The translations under genes and the position numbers were made by a program. 64,000 nucleotides of DNA from Patescibacteria group bacterium (GTDB lineage Archaea; Nanobdellota; Nanobdellia; Pacearchaeales; GW2011-AR1), in contig JAHYJW010000002.1 in assembly GCA_019428815.1 (NCBI GenBank), positions 11,725-75,724 of the forward strand, written 5' to 3'. The notes below the pieces were generated by a model. The model was not told the origin of the DNA. It worked only from the letters and a program-made list of their open reading frames with translations, and made no database searches. Below, one piece after another: positions 3,262-61,276 of this stretch (within the stretch, counting starts at the first letter, position 1; every line of letters begins with the position of its first letter).

Positions 3262-3389
3262 GCGCGAGTAGTATAGTGGTTAGTATCTCTCGTTGCCATA
3301 TAACAGGATATAATATCCTTTTTGTTTCTTTTAATAGAAACAGAGAGTGTAAGAACGAGGTGACCCGGGTTCGAATCCCGGCTCGCGCA
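3262..3389 (+). tRNA. tRNA-Gly (anticodon GCC) with a 56-nt intron at canonical position 37/38 (intron about 3299..3354)
   Basis: Acceptor GCGCGAG/CTCGCGC, anticodon stem TCTCG/CGAGG with loop TTGCCA|intron|A, T-arm CCGGG-TTCGAAT-CCCGG. The exons sum to 72 nt. Confidence 0.85.
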
Positions 3390-11371: not shown

Positions 11372-12292
11372 TTATCTTTTTCTGGTTTTTTTAGAATTGA
11401 TAATCTTATCTGCCTCTAAAGCAGCGATGCACCCTTGTCCAATAGCTACTGCAATCTGTTCTGGGCCTTTATCATTAATGTCCCCTATTGCAAAAATACG
11501 ATTTCTAGAGGTTCTCATCTTACCGTCTACTTTAATATGGCCTCTTTTATCTTTTTTTACATTTACAATTTCCGAATGTGGGCCAATTCCAAGTTCTACC
11601 GAAATCCCCTTTACCTTTAGTTCATTTTCTTTTTTAGTTCCTAAATCAATATACCTCAAACCTTCCACACTTTTGCCTCCAAATATCTCAAGTGTTTTTG
11701 CTTTAGTTATAATTGTAACATTTTGGAGCTTCTTTAATTCATCAACAAGTACATCTTCTCCTTTTAGTTTATCTTCAACTTCTAAAAGGTATATCTTTTT
11801 TGCAATTTTACTTAGATACAAGGCAGATCTAATCCCCGAAGATCCACCCCCAATTATCGCCACATCTTGACCTTTAAATAAAGGGCCATCACAAATTGTA
11901 CAATAAGTAATCCCCTTTTTGGTAAATTTGTCTTCTCCGGGGATGTTAAGTTTTTTTCTACCTCCACCAGCAGCTACGATTGCAATCTTTGCTTCTACAG
12001 AGTCTCCGTTTTCTAAGTTTACAATAACCTTTGATCCTTTTTGATAAACCCTTTTGACTAACATATCTTCCATAACCTCAACTTTATACGAACGAAGATG
12101 TTCTATGAATTTTTTAGCTAATTCTGGACCAGATATAGACTTAAACCCCAAATAATTTTCTATTTTGTCGGTCTTAGAAACATAGCCCCCTAATTCTTCG
12201 GTGATCAAAAGAGTGTCTAATTTCCTCCTTGCAGAGTAAACTCCTGCACACAATCCACCAGGGCCACCTCCAATAATGATTAAATCTCTCAT
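11372..12292 (-). CDS. trxB: thioredoxin-disulfide reductase
   Basis: DLIIIGGGPGGLCAGVY (FAD GxGxxG), redox-active CTICDG, second Rossmann motif VAIIGGGSSG, and C-terminal FAIGDI. Confidence 0.85.
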   Translation of the reverse strand: MRDLIIIGGGPGGLCAGVYSARRKLDTLLITEELGGYVSKTDKIENYLGFKSISGPELAKKFIEHLRSYKVEVMEDMLVKRVYQKGSKVIVNLENGDSVEAKIAIVAAGGGRKKLNIPGEDKFTKKGITYCTICDGPLFKGQDVAIIGGGSSGIRSALYLSKIAKKIYLLEVEDKLKGEDVLVDELKKLQNVTIITKAKTLEIFGGKSVEGLRYIDLGTKKENELKVKGISVELGIGPHSEIVNVKKDKRGHIKVDGKMRTSRNRIFAIGDINDKGPEQIAVAIGQGCIAALEADKIINSKKTRKR

Positions 12293-12296
12293 TTTT

Positions 12297-12530
12297 TTAT
12301 TCTAAACTTTTTTCAATTATTTTTTTATTAAAACCTACAATCAAATTTTCGCCAATTTCAATGATTGGAACTACTTTTTTACCCGACCTCTCGAAAATTT
12401 CTTCAGCTTTTTTTTGATCTTTAAAAACATCCACTACGGTATATTTAATTCCCTTTTCTTTTAAGAATCTCTTTGTTCTTTCACATTGCGGGCAGAGGGG
12501 CGTTGTATAAAGAATCACTTTTTTTACCAT
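12297..12530 (-). CDS. glutaredoxin/NrdH-like small redoxin (CPQC)
   Basis: 77 aa. VILYTTPLCPQCERTKRFLKEKGIKYTVVDV...VVPIIEIG is the canonical Grx fold pattern. It lies 4 nt upstream of trxB. Confidence 0.75.
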   Translation of the reverse strand: MVKKVILYTTPLCPQCERTKRFLKEKGIKYTVVDVFKDQKKAEEIFERSGKKVVPIIEIGENLIVGFNKKIIEKSLE

Positions 12531-12591
12531 TTTATTTTTACTTATTTTTGTTTCACTTATGTTTGTTTCTGTTCTTTAAAAATTTATTTAA

Positions 12592-13764
12592 TTAAAATCC
12601 CACCAAATAATAATAAGAAAGAAAGAATAATAAAAGTGTACCCGCCAAATAAATCCAGGTTATGAATTTAGATTCCGAAAACCAAATTTCTTTTGTAACG
12701 ACTGCTCCTAAGAAAATTATAATTTCAATTAGGAGATAGAAAAAGAGGTACAAAATAATATAAAGAGTGTACCCCCACCAAGAAAGACCTTCCCCAGCAA
12801 GTATACTTCCGAATACCATGGGCAATCCAAAAGAACAGGGTAGTTCAACTAATGTAATAACCGTAGCAAAAATTATTACACTTGTTGCTAAAAAGATTGT
12901 TTGAGTTGTCCTATTTTTAAATGCTTCTTGAATTTTATTTGTTGCGCCTATGATTAGTTTATTCCCACTATACTCGCAAGAAGGGCCATATTTACAAAAT
13001 TTAATAAATTTTATCAAAAAATAGATACCCCCTCCTAAAGCGGCAATCCCTACAAGCATATTTATCGATCCAATAAACTTTGAAAGTGTGGCAAATAATG
13101 CAGTCCAAATAAAAACTAAGACGCCATAAACTAAAGCTGTAGTTAAAATAAAAATCCCCCCATAAAAAATTATTTTTTTCCTTGAATCAAAACTCAAGAC
13201 AATCATTAAAATTAGTATTAATGCTCCAATAGAACAAACATTTAGCCCATCTAAACTCCCAATGATTAGTGCTAATAAGAAAAGATTCAAACCTTTTATG
13301 TTAACCTCACCAATTAAAGGAACTCTTATTATCGAACTCTTTCTGAGGTCGTTTATTTCTTCTTGAACATTTTCGCCATTTATTGCCCTTCTAATTAATT
13401 CTCCATCTGCCTCATAAAATTTTTGGAAATAATTTTCTTCAATAAAGAGCGTCGGCACAACTAACAAGTATTCCTCAACATCTCTTTCTTCCATCATCTG
13501 ATGGAAAAGTTCTTGATTTTGTAAATCTTGAATAGAGTAGATTTTTATTTCAATATTTGGATATTCTTTTTTAATAAACTCCTCCAAAAATGCTTTTTGA
13601 CGAGCACAATCTGGGCAGCCTCTTTCTTCAAAGAAGTAAAGTGTAGGTAAAGAGGTTGTATTATTGCTTTCGTTTAAATTTTCAAGTTCTAGTCCTTTAA
13701 GATTAAATAAGCTAAATAAAAAAAAGAATAAAAATATCCCCAGTATAATCTTTTCTTTTTTCAT
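12592..13764 (-). CDS. exported thioredoxin-fold domain (CPDC) fused to a CcdA/DsbD-like 6-TM thiol-disulfide transporter domain
   Basis: The N-terminal signal anchor is followed by LYFFEERGCPDCARQKAFLEEF. The polytopic domain has Cys inside hydrophobic segments (GLNVCSIGAL and ELPCSFGLP) plus a loop CKYGPSC. Confidence 0.6.
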   Translation of the reverse strand: MKKEKIILGIFLFFFLFSLFNLKGLELENLNESNNTTSLPTLYFFEERGCPDCARQKAFLEEFIKKEYPNIEIKIYSIQDLQNQELFHQMMEERDVEEYLLVVPTLFIEENYFQKFYEADGELIRRAINGENVQEEINDLRKSSIIRVPLIGEVNIKGLNLFLLALIIGSLDGLNVCSIGALILILMIVLSFDSRKKIIFYGGIFILTTALVYGVLVFIWTALFATLSKFIGSINMLVGIAALGGGIYFLIKFIKFCKYGPSCEYSGNKLIIGATNKIQEAFKNRTTQTIFLATSVIIFATVITLVELPCSFGLPMVFGSILAGEGLSWWGYTLYIILYLFFYLLIEIIIFLGAVVTKEIWFSESKFITWIYLAGTLLLFFLSYYYLVGF

Positions 13765-14228
13765 TTTACTAACTCTTTCTTTAATTCATTTTTTAGTTCT
13801 AATTTATTCATTCTCCCTTCTTTCTTTGTATTGATTAATCTTTTATCTTTTAATCTCTTAATTATTCTATGTGCCTTTATCTTATCGTAATCAGCAGAGA
13901 TTTCTGTTTGTCTGATCTGTCCTTTATTTTTGATTATTTTATCTAAAACATTTTTTTCGTCTTTATCTAAAACCGCATAAATAATCTCTAGATTTTTTTG
14001 AATTGTTTTTTGTTTATCCCCCATTTTTAAAGAAAATAGATAGTAAAATATTGAACTAACAAAAAAAATGGCCAATAAAATAAATACCCAGATGAAATTA
14101 TAAGAAACGACTCGAGGACATGAACAACTAGCAACTTTAAATCTATCTGCTAAGAGTAGGCTTAAGAATATAATCAAAGTTATGAAAGATAAACCTCCAA
14201 AAATAAGTACAACTTCTTTTTTTCCCAT
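13761..14228 (-). CDS. membrane-anchored winged-helix transcriptional regulator with a CxC motif
   Basis: Two N-terminal TM segments flank ...VASCSCPRVV.... The C-terminal part LDKDEKNVLDKIIKNKGQIRQTEISADYDKIKAHRIIKRLKDKRLI is MarR/wHTH-like. It overlaps the next gene by 4 nt. Confidence 0.55.
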   Translation of the reverse strand: MGKKEVVLIFGGLSFITLIIFLSLLLADRFKVASCSCPRVVSYNFIWVFILLAIFFVSSIFYYLFSLKMGDKQKTIQKNLEIIYAVLDKDEKNVLDKIIKNKGQIRQTEISADYDKIKAHRIIKRLKDKRLINTKKEGRMNKLELKNELKKELVK

Positions 14229-14386
14229 TAGTTTTAATGAATTTTTTTATTTTATAAAACTTTCGTTAGTTTCATTAAAATGTAACCTTAATCTCTTAGA
14301 TTTATTTATAGGTATTAATGTTTCTAATATAAGAAACTAATAAAAAGCATAAGATTTTTAAACAAATTCTATTTAATTAGGAACAT

Positions 14387-14779
14387 ATGCCAGAAAAAAA
14401 GAAACCGCTGCAGAGAAAAAAGAAGCAGATTGGAACACCCATCATAATTTTAATTGCTTTAATTTTAATCTTTTTTATATTTAAAATTTACAGGGATAAA
14501 ACCTCAACACTTAATGATTTTAATGAGTGTTTGAGTGAAAAGGGGTTAGTTTTTTATGGAACTACTTGGTGTCCTGCTTGTTCCAGTTTAGTTGAAACTT
14601 TGGGAGGCTATGAATCTGTTATTCCTGTTTATATAGATTGTATACAGAATCAAGAGAGGTGTAATGAAGAAAAAAAGACAAATTATGTTCCAGAAATACA
14701 AATTAATGGGGAAGTTTATGAAGGGCCAAGAACCTTAGAGAGTCTTTCGGTGATAACTGGATGCCCCTTGCCAAATTAA
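14387..14779 (+). CDS. membrane-anchored exported thioredoxin-fold protein (WCPAC), resembling VKOR-associated Trx domains
   Basis: The N-terminal TM is followed by FNECLSEKGLVFYGTTWCPACSSLVETLGG...VYIDC...ERC...VPEIQINGEVYEGPRTLESLSVITGCPLPN. Paralogous to the C-terminus of 52519..53382. Confidence 0.6.
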   Translation: MPEKKKPLQRKKKQIGTPIIILIALILIFFIFKIYRDKTSTLNDFNECLSEKGLVFYGTTWCPACSSLVETLGGYESVIPVYIDCIQNQERCNEEKKTNYVPEIQINGEVYEGPRTLESLSVITGCPLPN

Positions 14780-14814: not shown

Positions 14815-15318
14815 TTAAACTCTTTCCATCATAACCTCACATTTAGGGCAAATTTCTTTTATACATGGTTGAGCTCTTAACTGAGGTTTTTCATAACCAC
14901 ATTTAGGACACTTACAAATACCCCCTGGCCCCTTTACAGATTGGCCCATTCTCCCCCTACCAAGAAATTTTAATTTTTTATCTTCCGCCCTCCTGTTTAA
15001 GCTTATTCTTTTAGAAATCTCGGGTACTGCCATATCAAAGGTACCCCCCTCAATTTTTAGGGCATTGCCCCTAATAATTGCTTCTGCAATTTTTTTCCGA
15101 CCTTCTTTTAACAACCTTGATAATGTTGATTGAGAAATGTTCATCTTTTTTCCGCATTCTATTTGATTAATAGATTCTACATCTATTAGTCTAATTGCTT
15201 CTAATTCTTCAAAATTTATTTTAATTTCTTTGAGGTCTGATAAAGGGACTCCTCTAGGTTTAAAATAAGTTATTTCTGGTTTGAAAAAAATCCTCCTTTT
15301 TAATCTTGGCCTCACCAT
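14815..15318 (-). CDS. DUF134 (UPF0251) predicted DNA-binding protein with a C-terminal zinc ribbon
   Basis: MVRPRLKRRIFFKPEITYFKPRGVPL...ELEAIRLIDVE...QSTLSRLLKEGRKKIAEAIIRGNALKIEGG matches the DUF134 consensus. The C-terminus has CKCPKCG...CPKC. Confidence 0.8.
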   Translation of the reverse strand: MVRPRLKRRIFFKPEITYFKPRGVPLSDLKEIKINFEELEAIRLIDVESINQIECGKKMNISQSTLSRLLKEGRKKIAEAIIRGNALKIEGGTFDMAVPEISKRISLNRRAEDKKLKFLGRGRMGQSVKGPGGICKCPKCGYEKPQLRAQPCIKEICPKCEVMMERV

Positions 15319-15414: not shown

Positions 15415-15693
15415 TTATTCCTTAATTTCTTCTAGTCTCTTCTCAATTCTTTCCTTATCCTCATTAAGTAAATTCAATTCCCTTTTGAGTAATACTCTTT
15501 CTTCTTCTTCGGTTAGGGGTCTAGAGTTTTGAAAAATTTTAGGTTGTGCAAATCTTCCTCTGAATCCATAACCTCTCCCTCTAGCAAAACCTCTCCCGTA
15601 ACCTTCTGCTATTTGATCGTTTTCACAAGATCCTAAACCTCTTCCAGTTAAAGGGCCTTGTCCGTTTGGTCCTGTTCCATCATATCCTGGCAT
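15415..15693 (-). CDS. DUF5320-family protein
   Basis: MPGYDGTGPNGQGPLTGRGLGSC... followed by a C-terminal coiled coil is the DUF5320 pattern. This family is commonly found next to DUF134 genes. Confidence 0.7.
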   Translation of the reverse strand: MPGYDGTGPNGQGPLTGRGLGSCENDQIAEGYGRGFARGRGYGFRGRFAQPKIFQNSRPLTEEEERVLLKRELNLLNEDKERIEKRLEEIKE

Positions 15694-30772: not shown

Positions 30773-31354
30773 TTAATTTTTTTCTAAATTATTTGTTTTT
30801 TTGTAGATAAATATAACCAACAAAAATTCAGTGAGTATAATCAAAGGCATTGTTCTACCTAAAAATTCCAAAGCCATAATTGTAGTTATCAACAATGAAA
30901 CAAGACTCGCGCTTAATAAAGAATATTTGATTATTTTATCTGAGATTTTTATAAAAGCAAGTGTTAATGCAAAAATAAAAGTAAAAATCATTCGGCCCAG
31001 ATTAATTCTGTTATTATAACTCTTTATTTCAGAAAGGAAATCCCGATAACAATAACTACATTCTACTTCACAATCCTTTTTGTAAATCAGGTTACCTTCA
31101 TTCTGTAAACATTCTGTTATGAATCCTTCATCATAAGAACAGTTTAACTCTTCTAAGGAAGAAGTTTGGACATAAGGGGTAGAATAATCTTTAAAATAAG
31201 GATAGTCCCCAAAAGAACAATTATCTTCAGGCCGTTCTAAGAAAAGCCTTTCGATTGTAAAAACAAAACTTATAAACAAAGCAAAGATTAAAGCAAACAT
31301 TACAATGCTATAAATTGTTTTGTCTAATCCCCTCTTTTTATTTTCTTTAACCAT
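30773..31354 (-). CDS. hypothetical membrane protein with a Cys-rich extracytoplasmic loop
   Basis: 193 aa. The N-terminal TM is followed by a loop with 6 Cys (CSFGD...CSYDEGFITEC...CEVECSYC) and 2-3 C-terminal TMs. Confidence 0.45.
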   Translation of the reverse strand: MVKENKKRGLDKTIYSIVMFALIFALFISFVFTIERLFLERPEDNCSFGDYPYFKDYSTPYVQTSSLEELNCSYDEGFITECLQNEGNLIYKKDCEVECSYCYRDFLSEIKSYNNRINLGRMIFTFIFALTLAFIKISDKIIKYSLLSASLVSLLITTIMALEFLGRTMPLIILTEFLLVIFIYKKTNNLEKN

Positions 31355-35619: not shown

Positions 35620-37260
35620 ATGGATATGCCTGAAAAACCAATCGTTTTAATGCCTGAAGATGTACAAAGAATTCTTGGAAAAGATGCGCAAAGAAATAAT
35701 ATAATGGCTGCAAAAATGGTCTCTGAAATAGTTAAAACTACTTTAGGCCCAAAAGGAATGGATAAGATGTTAGTTTCTCCAACAAATGACATTATCATTA
35801 CAAATGACGGAGTTACAATACTTGAAGAAATGCAAATAGAACATCCAGCTGCAAAAATGATGGTTGAAATTGCAAAAACCCAAGAAAGTGAGGTTGGAGA
35901 TGGAACTACAACTGCAGTTATGATTGCAGGTAAATTACTTGAAAATGCTGAAAAACTTCTTGATAAAAAAATACACCCAACTGTGATTACAAAAGGATAC
36001 AGAATTGCAGCTGATAAATCTCAAGAAATTCTTTTAGATTTAGCTTTGAAAATAACCCCCAATGATGAAAAAATACTAAAACAAATTGCAATGACTGCTA
36101 TGACAGGTAAGGGTGCAGAAGACGCCAAAGAAAAACTCTCAGAGATAATTGTCCAAGCAATTAAACAAGTAGAGAATAATGGGCAATTAGATTTAAAGGA
36201 TATAAAAATTGACTCATCAAAAGGATTAGGGATAAAAGATACAGAGATAATTCAAGGAATAGTAATTGATAAAGAAAGGGCTTCTTATGATATGCCTAAT
36301 TTTATTTTAGATGCAAAAATAGCTTTAGTTGATTTTCCTCTTGAAATAAAAAACCCCGAGATAGATACAAAAATTTCAATAAATTCTCCCGACCAACTTC
36401 AAAGTTTTGTGATAGAAGAGGAAAGAAGTATAAAAGAAATGATTGAAAAAGTAAAACTTTCTGGAGCTAATGTTATCTTTTGTCAAAAGGGGATTGATGA
36501 TTTTGCAAGATATTTACTTTCAAAAGAGAAAATTTATGCTTGTCGAAGAGTTTCCAGAAGTGATTTAGAAAAAATCTCTAAAGCAACTGGAGGTAGGATT
36601 ATAAGTAACCTAAATGAATTAACTCCTTTTGAGCTAGGAAATGCAAAAAAAGTTGAAGAGATTAAACAGGGAGAAGATACCTTCACTTACATAAGAGGAT
36701 GTCAAAATCCTAAATCTCTAACAATTTTAATTCATGGGGGAACAGACCATGTCATTGAAGAAGTTAAAAGAGCAATAAAGGATGGTTTAGGAGATGTAGC
36801 ATGTGTCTTAAAATCTGGATTAGTTGTTCCCGGAGGGGGAGCAATTGAGATGGAACTTTCAAAAAGACTTAGAGAATTTTCACAGGGATTGACTGGAAGA
36901 GAACAACTTGCCATAGAAGAATTTGCTTCTGCACTTGAGTTTTTACCTGCAACTCTTGCAGAAAACGCAGGAATAGATCCCATAGATATTTTGACTGAAT
37001 TAAAGTCCCGACATGATTCTGGAGAAAAAAATGCGGGATTGAACCTATTCACAAATAGAATTGAAAACGTTTTAGAATCTCGTATAATAGAACCCTTAAA
37101 AATAAAAAGCCAGGCCATAAATTCTGCTAGCGATGTTGCCATAATGATTCTAAGAATTGATGACATAATCTCTGCAGTGGGTAAAAAAAATTCTTTAGGA
37201 ATAAAAGGGACCAACCCTATGATGGGCAAGGGAGGATTCCCAGATTATGGAGACTTTTAA
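35620..37260 (+). CDS. ths: thermosome subunit (group II chaperonin)
   Basis: [22 protein letters not shown], ...[11 protein letters not shown]..., [28 protein letters not shown]. Confidence 0.9.
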
Positions 37261-43868: not shown

Positions 43869-45762
<1,894 letters not shown>

Positions 45763-60013: not shown

Positions 60014-61276
60014 CTAATCTTCTAAGAAATATTCACAAGAGTTATAATAACTAGCGTTTCCACCGTAAGTACACTCTAATTCTTCATTAATAAAAATACA
60101 ATTTGCCTCCCCAGACCAGTCAGCATCATAAAAGGCATCTGAGATTTCTGGTAAATCATCTAGATCAAAATAACAAAAAGTTTCCATTCCCCAAAGTAAC
60201 ATAGAATAATTATTTGCTACTTCTATTTGTTCTTCAATCTCAAGAGCGGTATTTCCTAAAGATAAAAGGGCTTCCATAAGCCAGTTAGAAAAATAGATAG
60301 TTTGATTCGTTAGTTTAGAATAGTAAATACAAGTATCGTCTGATTCGTTAATCCCTATTATCTCTAGATTGGATATACTAGTTGTAACAATTCCTAAAAT
60401 TTCAAATACTGTAAACTGAGTTAATTTTGCAGGTTCACAGTTTTCTAAAGCTTCGGCAAAACAATGTTGAGGTGATAAGTTTAAATTTTGGCTATCACCA
60501 CTTGTTTCCATAAAAATTAAAAAAGATGTTCCGCAGTCCAAAATATCTAAAGTACAAATTCTCACTTCTGAAGGTTTGTTTAGCGTAGTTCCACATTGAT
60601 TTAAGTCTGTACAATTTCTTGTTTGAGTCTCATTCCCCGAACACGTACTCCAAGCAGTGCAGCTCCAGTTTTCAGCACAAGAAAGAGGATCACATTCCTG
60701 AGTTATCGGAGGTTTACTTAATATTGTCCCACATTGATTTAAGTCTGTACAATTTCTTGTTTGAGTTCCACCTTGAGAACAATTAGACCAAATGGTACAG
60801 CTCCAGTTTTCAGTACAAATAGCCTCATTAATCTTTTTGATATAAACTTCTAAGGTCCCTTCTTCTATCCTTATCAGTTTAATTTTTAGATTATAAGTTC
60901 CCGCGCCATTTAAATTAAACTTTTTTTCTTGTCCTTCTTCTAGGATAAAATCAATAGGATCACTCTCCAAGGTTAAACTTGCGGAATTATTGTTTGTGGA
61001 AATAACTCTAAGGGTATGAGTAACGTCTTCTAAAATGAATCTTACACTTTTACCTTCTCTTAAATTAATATTTTTCCCAGACATTATTTCTAATTCAGGA
61101 ATTGTTGTTTGGAAAAATCCTAAAATAAAGAGAACTAAAAAAATGATTCCTATAAAAAATACTACCGCGAGGATAATCAAAAAAGTATTCAGCCCAGATT
61201 TTTTGGGAGGATTAGTCCCTGAAGGAAAATATAAAACCTTTTTCTTTTCTTGAGTGTTAGAATTGTATTTATTCAT
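60014..61276 (-). CDS. membrane-anchored surface protein with two thrombospondin-type-1-like W/C repeats
   Basis: N-terminal TM anchor and a beta-sandwich domain. Then CTENWSCTIWSNCSQGGTQTRNCTDLNQCGT and CAENWSCTAWSTCSGNETQTRNCTDLNQCGT, followed by a Cys-rich C-terminal domain. Confidence 0.6.
   Translation of the reverse strand: MNKYNSNTQEKKKVLYFPSGTNPPKKSGLNTFLIILAVVFFIGIIFLVLFILGFFQTTIPELEIMSGKNINLREGKSVRFILEDVTHTLRVISTNNNSASLTLESDPIDFILEEGQEKKFNLNGAGTYNLKIKLIRIEEGTLEVYIKKINEAICTENWSCTIWSNCSQGGTQTRNCTDLNQCGTILSKPPITQECDPLSCAENWSCTAWSTCSGNETQTRNCTDLNQCGTTLNKPSEVRICTLDILDCGTSFLIFMETSGDSQNLNLSPQHCFAEALENCEPAKLTQFTVFEILGIVTTSISNLEIIGINESDDTCIYYSKLTNQTIYFSNWLMEALLSLGNTALEIEEQIEVANNYSMLLWGMETFCYFDLDDLPEISDAFYDADWSGEANCIFINEELECTYGGNASYYNSCEYFLED

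Follow-up and report, generated by a model that had tools for sequence, protein, structure and literature searches.

A candidate transmembrane thiol-reducing locus centred on a redoxin-membrane fusion protein in an archaeal genome, with relatives in Patescibacteria

Introduction

Patescibacteria and DPANN-type archaea live attached to hosts and depend on surface proteins and pili. A locus that may control the thiol-redox state outside such a cell was found in a 64,000 nt stretch of contig JAHYJW010000002.1 (assembly GCA_019428815.1), referred to below as the window. Four minus-strand genes encode a membrane-tethered winged helix-turn-helix (wHTH) protein, a fusion of an exported redoxin domain to a six-helix membrane domain (the fusion protein), a small glutaredoxin (Grx)-like protein and a thioredoxin reductase (TrxR)-like flavoprotein, and a divergent plus-strand gene encodes a membrane-anchored exported thioredoxin (Trx) fold, here termed dTrx. 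We propose, with a probability of roughly 0.65, that the locus is a self-contained pathway for exporting reducing equivalents from the cytoplasm, with outward electron flow.

The DsbD, CcdA and ScsB transporters have been studied almost solely in cultured bacteria. They represent the three known classes of transmembrane reductive pathway (PMC3322552). An initial annotation of the locus had described the fusion as CcdA-like and had suggested that the whole may be an autonomously regulated system, of a kind that would be unusual for a reduced-genome archaeon. The present analysis examines the five proteins, their relatives and their gene neighbourhoods.

The fusion protein and its membrane domain

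All five open reading frames (ORFs) were recovered with the coordinates, motifs, spacing and orientation given by the initial annotation. Domains were assigned with Pfam and NCBIfam hidden Markov model scans, and the positions of the cysteine codons were verified against the window sequence (Table 1). The intergenic gaps are 4 nt on the Grx-TrxR side and 61 nt between the fusion and Grx genes, whereas the end of the wHTH gene shares 4 nt with the fusion gene. The window is archaeal, with thermosome (742 bits), archaeal Kae1 and Cbf5 matches all above the NCBIfam cut-offs, and its GC content is uniform at ~30 % throughout, so that the locus carries no mark of recent insertion.

The cysteines of the fusion protein are conserved. 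C50 and C53 of the exported CPDC motif, P104, and the three membrane-domain cysteines C177, C263 and C310 were all invariant in an alignment of 29 relatives (alignment A1). Across a broader set of 260 relatives, C177 and C310 were retained in every sequence (260/260) and C263 in 251, bearing out the expectation that homologues would conserve cysteines within the transmembrane (TM) segments. Pro104 sits where the cis-proline of a thioredoxin fold is expected. When the N-terminal and C-terminal halves of the membrane domain were aligned to each other, C177 and C310 fell in register (P 0.011, against 0.087 for the reversed control). In AlphaFold2 models of both the full-length fusion and the membrane domain alone (mean predicted local distance difference test scores 79.6 and 74.4), the TM1 and TM4 helices are broken at these cysteines. 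In a distant subfamily the plan is unchanged, and the motifs read DGFNPC and VELxCSAGLP in the membrane domain and GCPHC in the exported domain.

The mean number of lysine plus arginine residues in the 260 relatives was 3.3, 7.8 and 2.4 for loops 1-2, 3-4 and 5-6, respectively, and 0.6, 1.1 and 0.2 for the segment preceding TM1 and for loops 2-3 and 4-5. This distribution, combined with a signal-peptide-like N-terminus, predicts an N-out, C-out topology with six TM helices, in which the CPxC domain would lie outside and C263 in the cytoplasm. The prediction agrees with the extracytoplasmic location originally assigned to the CPDC domain. Longer relatives have either a doubled Trx/Grx domain at the N-terminus or a Trx domain behind TM6 (P0211), and the occurrence of these domains at the N-terminus, in duplicate or at the C-terminus therefore fits a topology with both termini outside. 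No fused Msr or peroxiredoxin, which could have pointed to substrates, was found in the longer family members, the additional domains being of the Trx/Grx type only.

The exported domain gave weak Pfam matches to Thioredoxin_2 and Glrx-like families (E 0.0025-0.003), and Grx/Trx families were matched by 13 of the 29 fusion family members. A profile search of the Protein Data Bank (PDB) with the fusion returned Trx/Grx folds only. A Foldseek search with the full-length model likewise returned Trx/Grx folds at a probability of 1.0, thioredoxin folds swamping the list of matches.

The membrane domain itself was matched by a single Pfam model, GAP/SfLAP (PF11139), which aligned to 2 of the 29 members and not to the window protein. 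In one of these cases, the relative P0045, residues 155-347 (TM1-5) aligned to model positions 3-175 of 213 with E 7.4e-8, and the score of 32.5 bits is below the gathering threshold of 35. GAP and DsbD both belong to the LysE superfamily, and GAP has been reported as statistically related to DsbD (PMC4608589). The sub-threshold match would place the membrane domain in the LysE superfamily, which also includes DsbD. Our reading from these sequence comparisons is that the domain would be a LysE-superfamily protein of 3+3 helices that works like CcdA, either as a divergent member of the DsbD superfamily or as a parallel invention.

In its architecture the fusion resembles CcdA, DsbD and ScsB (TC 5.A.1). 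The core has six TM helices and is predicted to have its N- and C-termini outside, each half of a 3+3 pseudo-repeat carries an essential-looking cysteine where a helix (TM1 or TM4) is broken, and the presumed donor is a cytoplasmic thiol reductase system. As in DsbD, with its gamma domain, exported Trx-fold domains are fused at a terminus. There are also differences. The motifs are DG(L/F)N(V/P)C in TM1 and ELPCS in TM4, compared with the P-C-x-x-P motifs of CcdA/DsbD, as in the E. coli DsbD sequence. The redoxin domain of the fusion is N-terminal and Grx-like, a third near-invariant cysteine is present in a cytoplasmic loop, the adjacent donors are a Grx-like protein and an AhpF-type reductase rather than Trx and TrxB, and the comparisons gave no significant sequence or fold match. 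With GAP/SfLAP proteins (TC 2.A.116) the domain shares six TM helices in a 3+3 layout; it differs in that the match is below the gathering threshold, and GAP proteins are not known to have redox cysteines or Trx fusions. A further parallel with the CcdA, DsbD and ScsB transporters is the adjacent gene for an exported Trx-fold partner, comparable to CcdA with ResA, CcmG or Etrx and to ScsB with ScsC (PMC3322552).

The fusion proved not to be rare. A word-indexed search found 252 close relatives, and an exhaustive profile search with the membrane domain alone retrieved 1,288 clusters (50 % identity) at E<=1e-3, 753 of them at E<=1e-10, mostly from Patescibacteria and also from DPANN-type archaea. 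The description of the fused form as unusual therefore fails for the fusion as such. Public databases name these proteins 'glutaredoxin', 'thioredoxin family protein' or 'hypothetical', with a few JGI entries adding 'CcdA'. This annotation covers the soluble redoxin domain only, the membrane domain having no Pfam model of its own, and nothing specific on this fusion in the candidate phyla radiation (CPR) or DPANN was found in the literature.

Electron donors and the exported thioredoxin

The putative cytoplasmic donors are encoded by the two genes 3' of the fusion. The flavoprotein matched Pfam Pyr_redox_2 well above the cut-off (E 2.7e-39). Among NCBIfam models, it scored 284.8 bits against TRX_reduct TIGR01292 (cut-off 343.45) and 293.7 bits against AhpF TIGR03140 (cut-off 502.9), of which only the C-terminal half was covered. 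Sequence identity is 37 % with the E. coli AhpF C-terminal module, compared with 33 % with TrxB. In an alignment with both E. coli proteins, its 'YCTICDGPLF' matches 'YCPHCDGPLF' of AhpF. In the dinucleotide-binding region, where TrxB carries the NADPH-binding motif 'HRRD', the 'YLLEVED' motif of the window protein places 'LLEVEDKLKG' opposite 'LLEFAPEMKA' of AhpF and 'LIHRRDGFRA' of TrxB. By sequence, the protein belongs to the TrxR/AhpF-C superfamily and resembles the NADH-using AhpF type more than a classical NADPH-dependent TrxR. The earlier label of TrxR holds at the level of this superfamily, within which the subfamily assignment is tentative. Use of NADH is likely, since an AhpF-like motif replaces the HRRD of TrxB.

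The Grx-like protein, which has no TM segment or signal sequence, matched Pfam Glutaredoxin PF00462 with E 5.1e-17 and 62.3 bits (cut-off 22.9) and TIGR02196 GlrX_YruB with 81.1 bits (cut-off 88.55). Membership is supported at the level of the fold, and the YruB/Cp9/NrdH subfamily assignment should be read as approximate. This protein is the proposed electron donor to the membrane domain of the fusion. An operon in Clostridium pasteurianum encoding Cp34 (TrxR-like) and Cp9 (Grx-like) offers a precedent for the donor pair (PMC3720550), sharing with the window an AhpF-like TrxR-family flavoprotein gene beside a gene for a small YruB/Cp9-type Grx. The two differ in the third gene, which is a peroxiredoxin in C. 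pasteurianum and a membrane redoxin fusion here; no peroxiredoxin was seen in the window locus.

For dTrx, the strongly basic N-terminus (rich in KKK/RKKK) followed by one TM helix predicts an N-in anchor with the Trx fold outside, as had been proposed for the WCPAC domain. Pfam gave a weak Grx match only. The best PDB matches, 3KP8 (E 6.4e-9 over residues 51-128) and 3KP9 (E 2.3e-8), are structures of Synechococcus VKOR and align in its Trx-like domain, so the resemblance to VKOR-linked Trx domains first noticed at pattern level reflects true homology. About 80 residues align with this domain (3KP8/3KP9/4NV2), and the features YG..WCPxC, (E/D)C...C and G.PL are shared. In contrast to the VKOR domain, dTrx stands alone with its own TM anchor, has an extra invariant cysteine pair (C48/C126) and neighbours the fusion rather than VKOR. 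Six cysteines and a VPE motif are conserved in 51 homologues. The invariant cysteines beyond the CPxC motif are C48, C85, C92 and C126, which makes two structural cysteine pairs in addition to the CPxC pair probable.

No VKOR-like ORF was seen among the membrane ORFs with CxxC motifs in the window, in agreement with the initial annotation. ORFs in the window that combine CxxC with at least four TM segments are restricted to the fusion and ORF 30773-31354 (-). The latter, a 193 aa membrane protein with four TM segments and one CxxC, was considered as a VKOR/DsbB candidate and rejected, as it has no such Pfam match and its six cysteines fall within a soluble segment that is predicted to face outward. 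It has no significant Pfam family, which is also true of ORF 60014-61276 (-), a protein of 420 aa with one TM segment and 20 cysteines. Either could plausibly be a client of a thiol system outside the cell.

Gene order and distribution

To describe gene neighbourhoods, 80 genome loci (L001-L080) were counted, in which the bacterial loci are labelled as Patescibacteria and the denominators are those loci with sufficient flanking sequence. The order wHTH-fusion-Grx-TrxR of the window was found in the related archaeal contigs L083, L096 and L097, and in L008, where TrxR is clipped by the end of the locus. L007 has wHTH-fusion-Grx-dTrx. The dTrx gene is divergent in L097, as in the window, and comes after TrxR in L096. 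The recurrence of this gene set despite the shuffled position of dTrx indicates that the five genes travel together, and the synteny expected from the initial annotation was thus observed in these five loci and extended to bacterial ones. Among the latter, 44 of 66 have dTrx immediately 5' of the fusion and in the same orientation. Reductase genes are directly 3' of the fusion in six archaeal-type loci including the window, that of L007 being Grx without TrxR, with gaps or overlaps of a few nucleotides. Grx is directly 3' of the fusion in nine bacterial and two archaeal genome loci, in addition to L083, L096 and L097.

The closest relatives of the window fusion are on archaeal-type contigs, at 57-70 % identity. 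One of these, L096, carries Spt4, S24e and S27e, from which its host is taken to be archaeal. The window group is 58-64 % identical to some Patescibacteria copies, and the fusions of archaea as a whole split into at least three distinct similarity groups. The near-equal closeness of the window group to some Patescibacteria copies and to archaeal ones suggests exchange between domains, and the sequence similarities as a whole suggest repeated transfer of the fusion between bacterial and archaeal lineages.

Other features of these neighbourhoods were also recorded. At least 27 of the 80 fusion loci are from a series of metagenome-assembled genomes from hypersaline soda lakes (PW*, PU*, SL*, SK*, LKM*), for which sampling bias is possible, and haloalkaliphilic Nanohaloarchaeota are also among the fusion loci. 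High external pH favours thiolate oxidation, which could create a need for an outside reductase. An exported protein of ~209 aa with a single conserved 'AACP' cysteine is encoded directly 3' of the fusion in 13 Patescibacteria loci (e.g. L094 5147-5776). It has no Pfam family on record in L094 or L095, and it is a candidate substrate or partner of the fusion. A second thiol-related module, made up of a Thioredoxin_3 protein, an ArsP_1 permease and an HTH_5 regulator of the ArsR type, lies beside or interleaved with the fusion in L082 (4270-7319), in L083 (4238-6032) and in several of the genome loci. Among the genome loci, nine have a Thioredoxin_3 protein, seven an ArsR-type regulator and five an ArsP_1 permease, and an exported rhodanese is near the fusion in eight loci. 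Genes for a thermosome subunit (NF041082, 742 bits) and for a GroEL of bacterial type (TIGR02348, 764 bits) are both present in the window, at 35620-37260 (+) and 44146-45762 (+), and the GroEL gene may have been acquired from bacteria.

The putative membrane regulator and a conserved palindrome

The cytoplasmic domain of the wHTH protein matched DUF7343 (PF24034) with E 2.8e-6 and 27.5 bits, against a cut-off of 27.6. Precomputed Pfam matches include DUF7343 for the L083 and L096 orthologues, with no mark of weakness, and for the L097 orthologue, where the match is marked as weak. The CxC motif between its two TM helices is invariant in eight aligned homologues and, given an N-in orientation, is predicted to face outside. 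The 4-nt overlap with the fusion gene is also present in L083, L096 and L097.

A palindrome, GTTTCTAATATAAGAAAC (GTTTC-N8-GAAAC), lies in the 158-bp divergent intergenic region, 92 bp 5' of the wHTH start codon and 50 bp 5' of the dTrx start codon. The pattern has two exact matches in the window, compared with 0.05 expected. It is also present 5' of the wHTH gene in L008, L083 (two copies) and L097, and as two copies with one mismatch in L096, and was not found elsewhere in 800 kb of fetched loci. This makes the palindrome a good candidate for an operator, and its conserved position 5' of the wHTH gene fits self-regulation, in keeping with the suggestion that the locus has regulation of its own. 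The wHTH protein probably senses either the outside thiol-redox state or a thiophilic metal through its CxC motif. Judged by these sequences, the new element here is the invariant CxC in a putative membrane regulator together with a palindrome upstream of its gene.

The other copy of the pattern in the window (3324-3341) is inside a tRNA. The Rfam tRNA match at 3262-3389 (+) spans 128 nt over the full 71-position model and is therefore taken as intron-containing; ARAGORN made no call. Beside the five-gene locus lie genes for a DUF134 protein with a C-terminal double-CxxC tail (14815-15318, -) and for a DUF5320 protein (15415-15693, -). DUF134, with or without DUF5320, also occurs 5' of the fusion in the bacterial loci L022 and L037, and may be an alternative regulator.

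Table 1. Coordinates in the window of the genes, domains, cysteines and candidate operator of the locus
Feature	Position	Strand	Description
TrxR-like flavoprotein disulfide reductase, low-molecular-weight, cytoplasmic	11372..12292	-	306 aa; CTIC C131/C134 (codons 11900-11902, 11891-11893)
Grx-like redoxin, cytoplasmic	12297..12530	-	77 aa; CPQC C13/C16; YruB/Cp9/NrdH-like (approximate)
Fusion protein	12592..13764	-	390 aa; N-terminal signal/anchor, exported Grx/Trx-like domain, six-helix membrane domain
Exported Grx/Trx-like domain, about residues 38-140	13345..13653	-	CPDC C50/C53 (codons 13615-13617, 13606-13608); Pro104
Six-TM domain, about residues 155-390	12595..13302	-	Predicted N-out/C-out
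C177 in TM1	codon 13234-13236	-	DGLNVCSIG
C310 in TM4	codon 12835-12837	-	ELPCS
C263 in cytoplasmic loop 3-4 (predicted)	codon 12976-12978	-	YGPSC
Membrane-tethered wHTH protein, putative regulator	13761..14228	-	155 aa; two TM helices, CxC between, cytoplasmic DUF7343 wHTH domain
CxC C35/C37 of wHTH protein	codons 14124-14126, 14118-14120	-	Short inter-TM stretch
Palindrome GTTTC-N8-GAAAC, candidate operator	14320..14337		158-bp divergent intergenic region
dTrx, membrane-anchored exported thioredoxin fold	14387..14779	+	130 aa; WCPAC C62/C65; ends GCPLPN

Proposed mechanism and alternatives

In the proposed pathway, electrons from NAD(P)H, probably NADH, would enter through the AhpF-type TrxR-like flavoprotein and pass to the small CPQC Grx-like protein, which would reduce a C177-C310 disulfide in the membrane domain of the fusion. 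C263 in the cytoplasmic loop may act as an entry or relay thiol. The membrane domain would then function as a thiol-disulfide shuttle of the CcdA/DsbD type, passing electrons to its own exported CPDC domain in the role of DsbD-gamma, from which they would reach the membrane-anchored WCPAC protein dTrx. This protein would in turn reduce or isomerise cysteines of surface or exported proteins. The wHTH protein may control both the operon and the divergent dTrx gene via the GTTTC-N8-GAAAC palindrome. The direction of flow, each protein-protein transfer, the part played by C263 and control by the wHTH protein are all inferences. Trx and Grx proteins have lower redox potentials than DsbA-type proteins, and this, together with the NAD(P)H-dependent reductase encoded in the operon, argues for the outward direction.

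Several results weigh against this proposal, most of them concerning the membrane domain. Neither PF02683 DsbD nor PF13386 DsbD_2 was matched at E<=0.1-1 by any of 69 family members (29 from alignment A1 and 40 from A3), no DsbD or CcdA model was matched in the NCBIfam scan of the fusion, and CcdA was not recovered by the PDB profile search with the fusion. In hhalign comparisons, the TM profile gave P 0.053 against an E. coli DsbD-beta profile and P 0.087 against a more diverse profile. The range over a single DsbD-beta sequence, a close-homologue profile and a profile widened by adding seven plasmid-borne DsbD/CcdA/ScsB-like sequences was P 0.05-0.16. Reversed-sequence controls gave P 0.32-0.42, and these controls together with the internal-repeat score of DsbD itself (P 0.041) place the values at the noise boundary. 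The Foldseek search with the TM-only model gave no significant match at all; CcdA (5VKV) had the top TM-score of the list (0.42/0.45) but an E value of 2.8. Outside the membrane domain, the clade of dTrx is otherwise known fused to VKOR, an oxidizing enzyme, and adjacency of the fusion to Grx or TrxR was limited to ~20-28 % of bacterial loci (directly 3' in 12 of 61, and within 6 kb in 19 of 68), where these could be housekeeping genes.

The signals that were obtained from the membrane domain are weak, and all point one way. The global hhalign alignment with DsbD-beta covers TM1-6 over ~210 columns and places C177 and C310 onto C163 and C285 of DsbD, and CcdA heads the Foldseek list by TM-score. 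The accepted internal repeat of DsbD, for its part, scored no better than these comparisons. The failure of E. coli DsbD-beta to retrieve CcdA from the PDB by phmmer also indicates a large sequence divergence inside the DsbD superfamily. The term CcdA-like thus holds as a functional and architectural analogy, and membership of the family would be tentative (hhalign P 0.05-0.09; TM-score 0.42-0.45, E 2.8).

The absence of any VKOR or DsbB among the CxxC-bearing membrane ORFs of the window, combined with the VKOR homology of dTrx, would also be expected if the pathway ran in the opposite direction. The fusion would then replace VKOR/DsbB and re-oxidize a DsbA-like dTrx, with electrons moving inward via the TM cysteines to Grx and a cytoplasmic oxidant draining them. 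The three probable disulfides of dTrx, which are typical of oxidizing compartments, and the DsbA-like CPHC in the exported domain of the distant subfamily are consistent with such an arrangement. It nevertheless appears improbable, as on general thermodynamic grounds an NAD(P)H-dependent reductase in the operon beside Grx would keep Grx reduced and drive electrons outward, and the membrane domain lacks both a CxxC and a recognizable quinone site. Patescibacteria and DPANN-type archaea are not known to make quinones or c-type cytochromes. CPR genomes have been reported to use MdbA-like oxidoreductases and VKOR for oxidation (PMC6744442).

By analogy with MerP/MerT/MerA, there is also a slim chance that the locus handles thiophilic metals or metalloids (Hg, Cu, As, Se, Te), the exported CxxC proteins capturing the ion, the TM and loop cysteines passing it on, Grx and the flavoprotein reducing or detoxifying it and the CxC motif acting as sensor. 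The layout of TM cysteines with a cytoplasmic-loop cysteine recalls MerT, CxC is a common metal ligand motif, and the N-terminal domain has weak PDB matches to copper- and metal-resistance Trx proteins (E 0.04-0.07). Relatives in the LysE superfamily are mostly ion or metal exporters (PMC4608589). Both exported domains, however, have ordinary Trx/Grx folds, in which CPxC is accompanied by an invariant proline where the cis-proline is expected, rather than MerP-type ferredoxin folds, and the flavoprotein is of the low-molecular-weight TrxR/AhpF type, scoring 53 bits against the MerA cut-off of 454. The ArsR-type regulators, the Thioredoxin_3 and ArsP_1 pair and the exported rhodanese found near the fusion elsewhere would suit metal handling, but the ArsR/ArsP module is a separate neighbouring unit that is absent from the window.

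It is very unlikely that there is no relay at all, that is, that an exporter of the LysE/GAP type has been fused by chance to a redoxin and that Grx and TrxR are a general cytoplasmic thiol system whose genes came to lie there through chance or compaction of the genome. GAP proteins have been reported as glycolipid-addressing (PMC4608589), and the sole sequence match of the membrane domain is to these GAP/SfLAP lipid-addressing proteins; most bacterial loci also lack the Grx/TrxR adjacency. Against a chance fusion, the TM cysteines are invariant in 260 relatives at equivalent repeat positions, which a non-thiol transporter would not need, and the membrane domain is nearly always fused to or adjoining Trx-fold proteins. 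In six archaeal-type loci, with protein identities of 57-70 %, the gene set has also stayed intact even though dTrx has changed position.

Significance

Export of reducing equivalents from the cytoplasm thus remains our preferred explanation of the locus. A wider proposal, which we put forward tentatively and regard as rather unlikely in its entirety, is that the fusion represents a fourth class of transmembrane thiol-disulfide transporter, which arose within the LysE superfamily and is less close to CcdA than to GAP-like proteins. A Grx-like protein and an NADH-dependent AhpF-type reductase would feed its relay of three cysteines. The transporter would be the main surface redox control in ultra-small members of the Patescibacteria and of the DPANN-type archaea, would have passed between the two domains, and in archaea would be under a CxC membrane regulator that senses the outside redox state. 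A dedicated membrane regulator in archaea would also set the family apart from DsbD, CcdA and ScsB.

If the relay exists, the family would be a new class of membrane electron transporter, set apart by its motifs and by one more cysteine on the cytoplasmic side. Its CxC wHTH protein and the 18-bp palindrome would form a compact sensor-operator pair. The distribution of the fusion would be a clear example of genes passing between bacteria and archaea of the episymbiont type, and the pathway would offer a way into the redox control of the envelope in ultra-small cells that have not been cultured.

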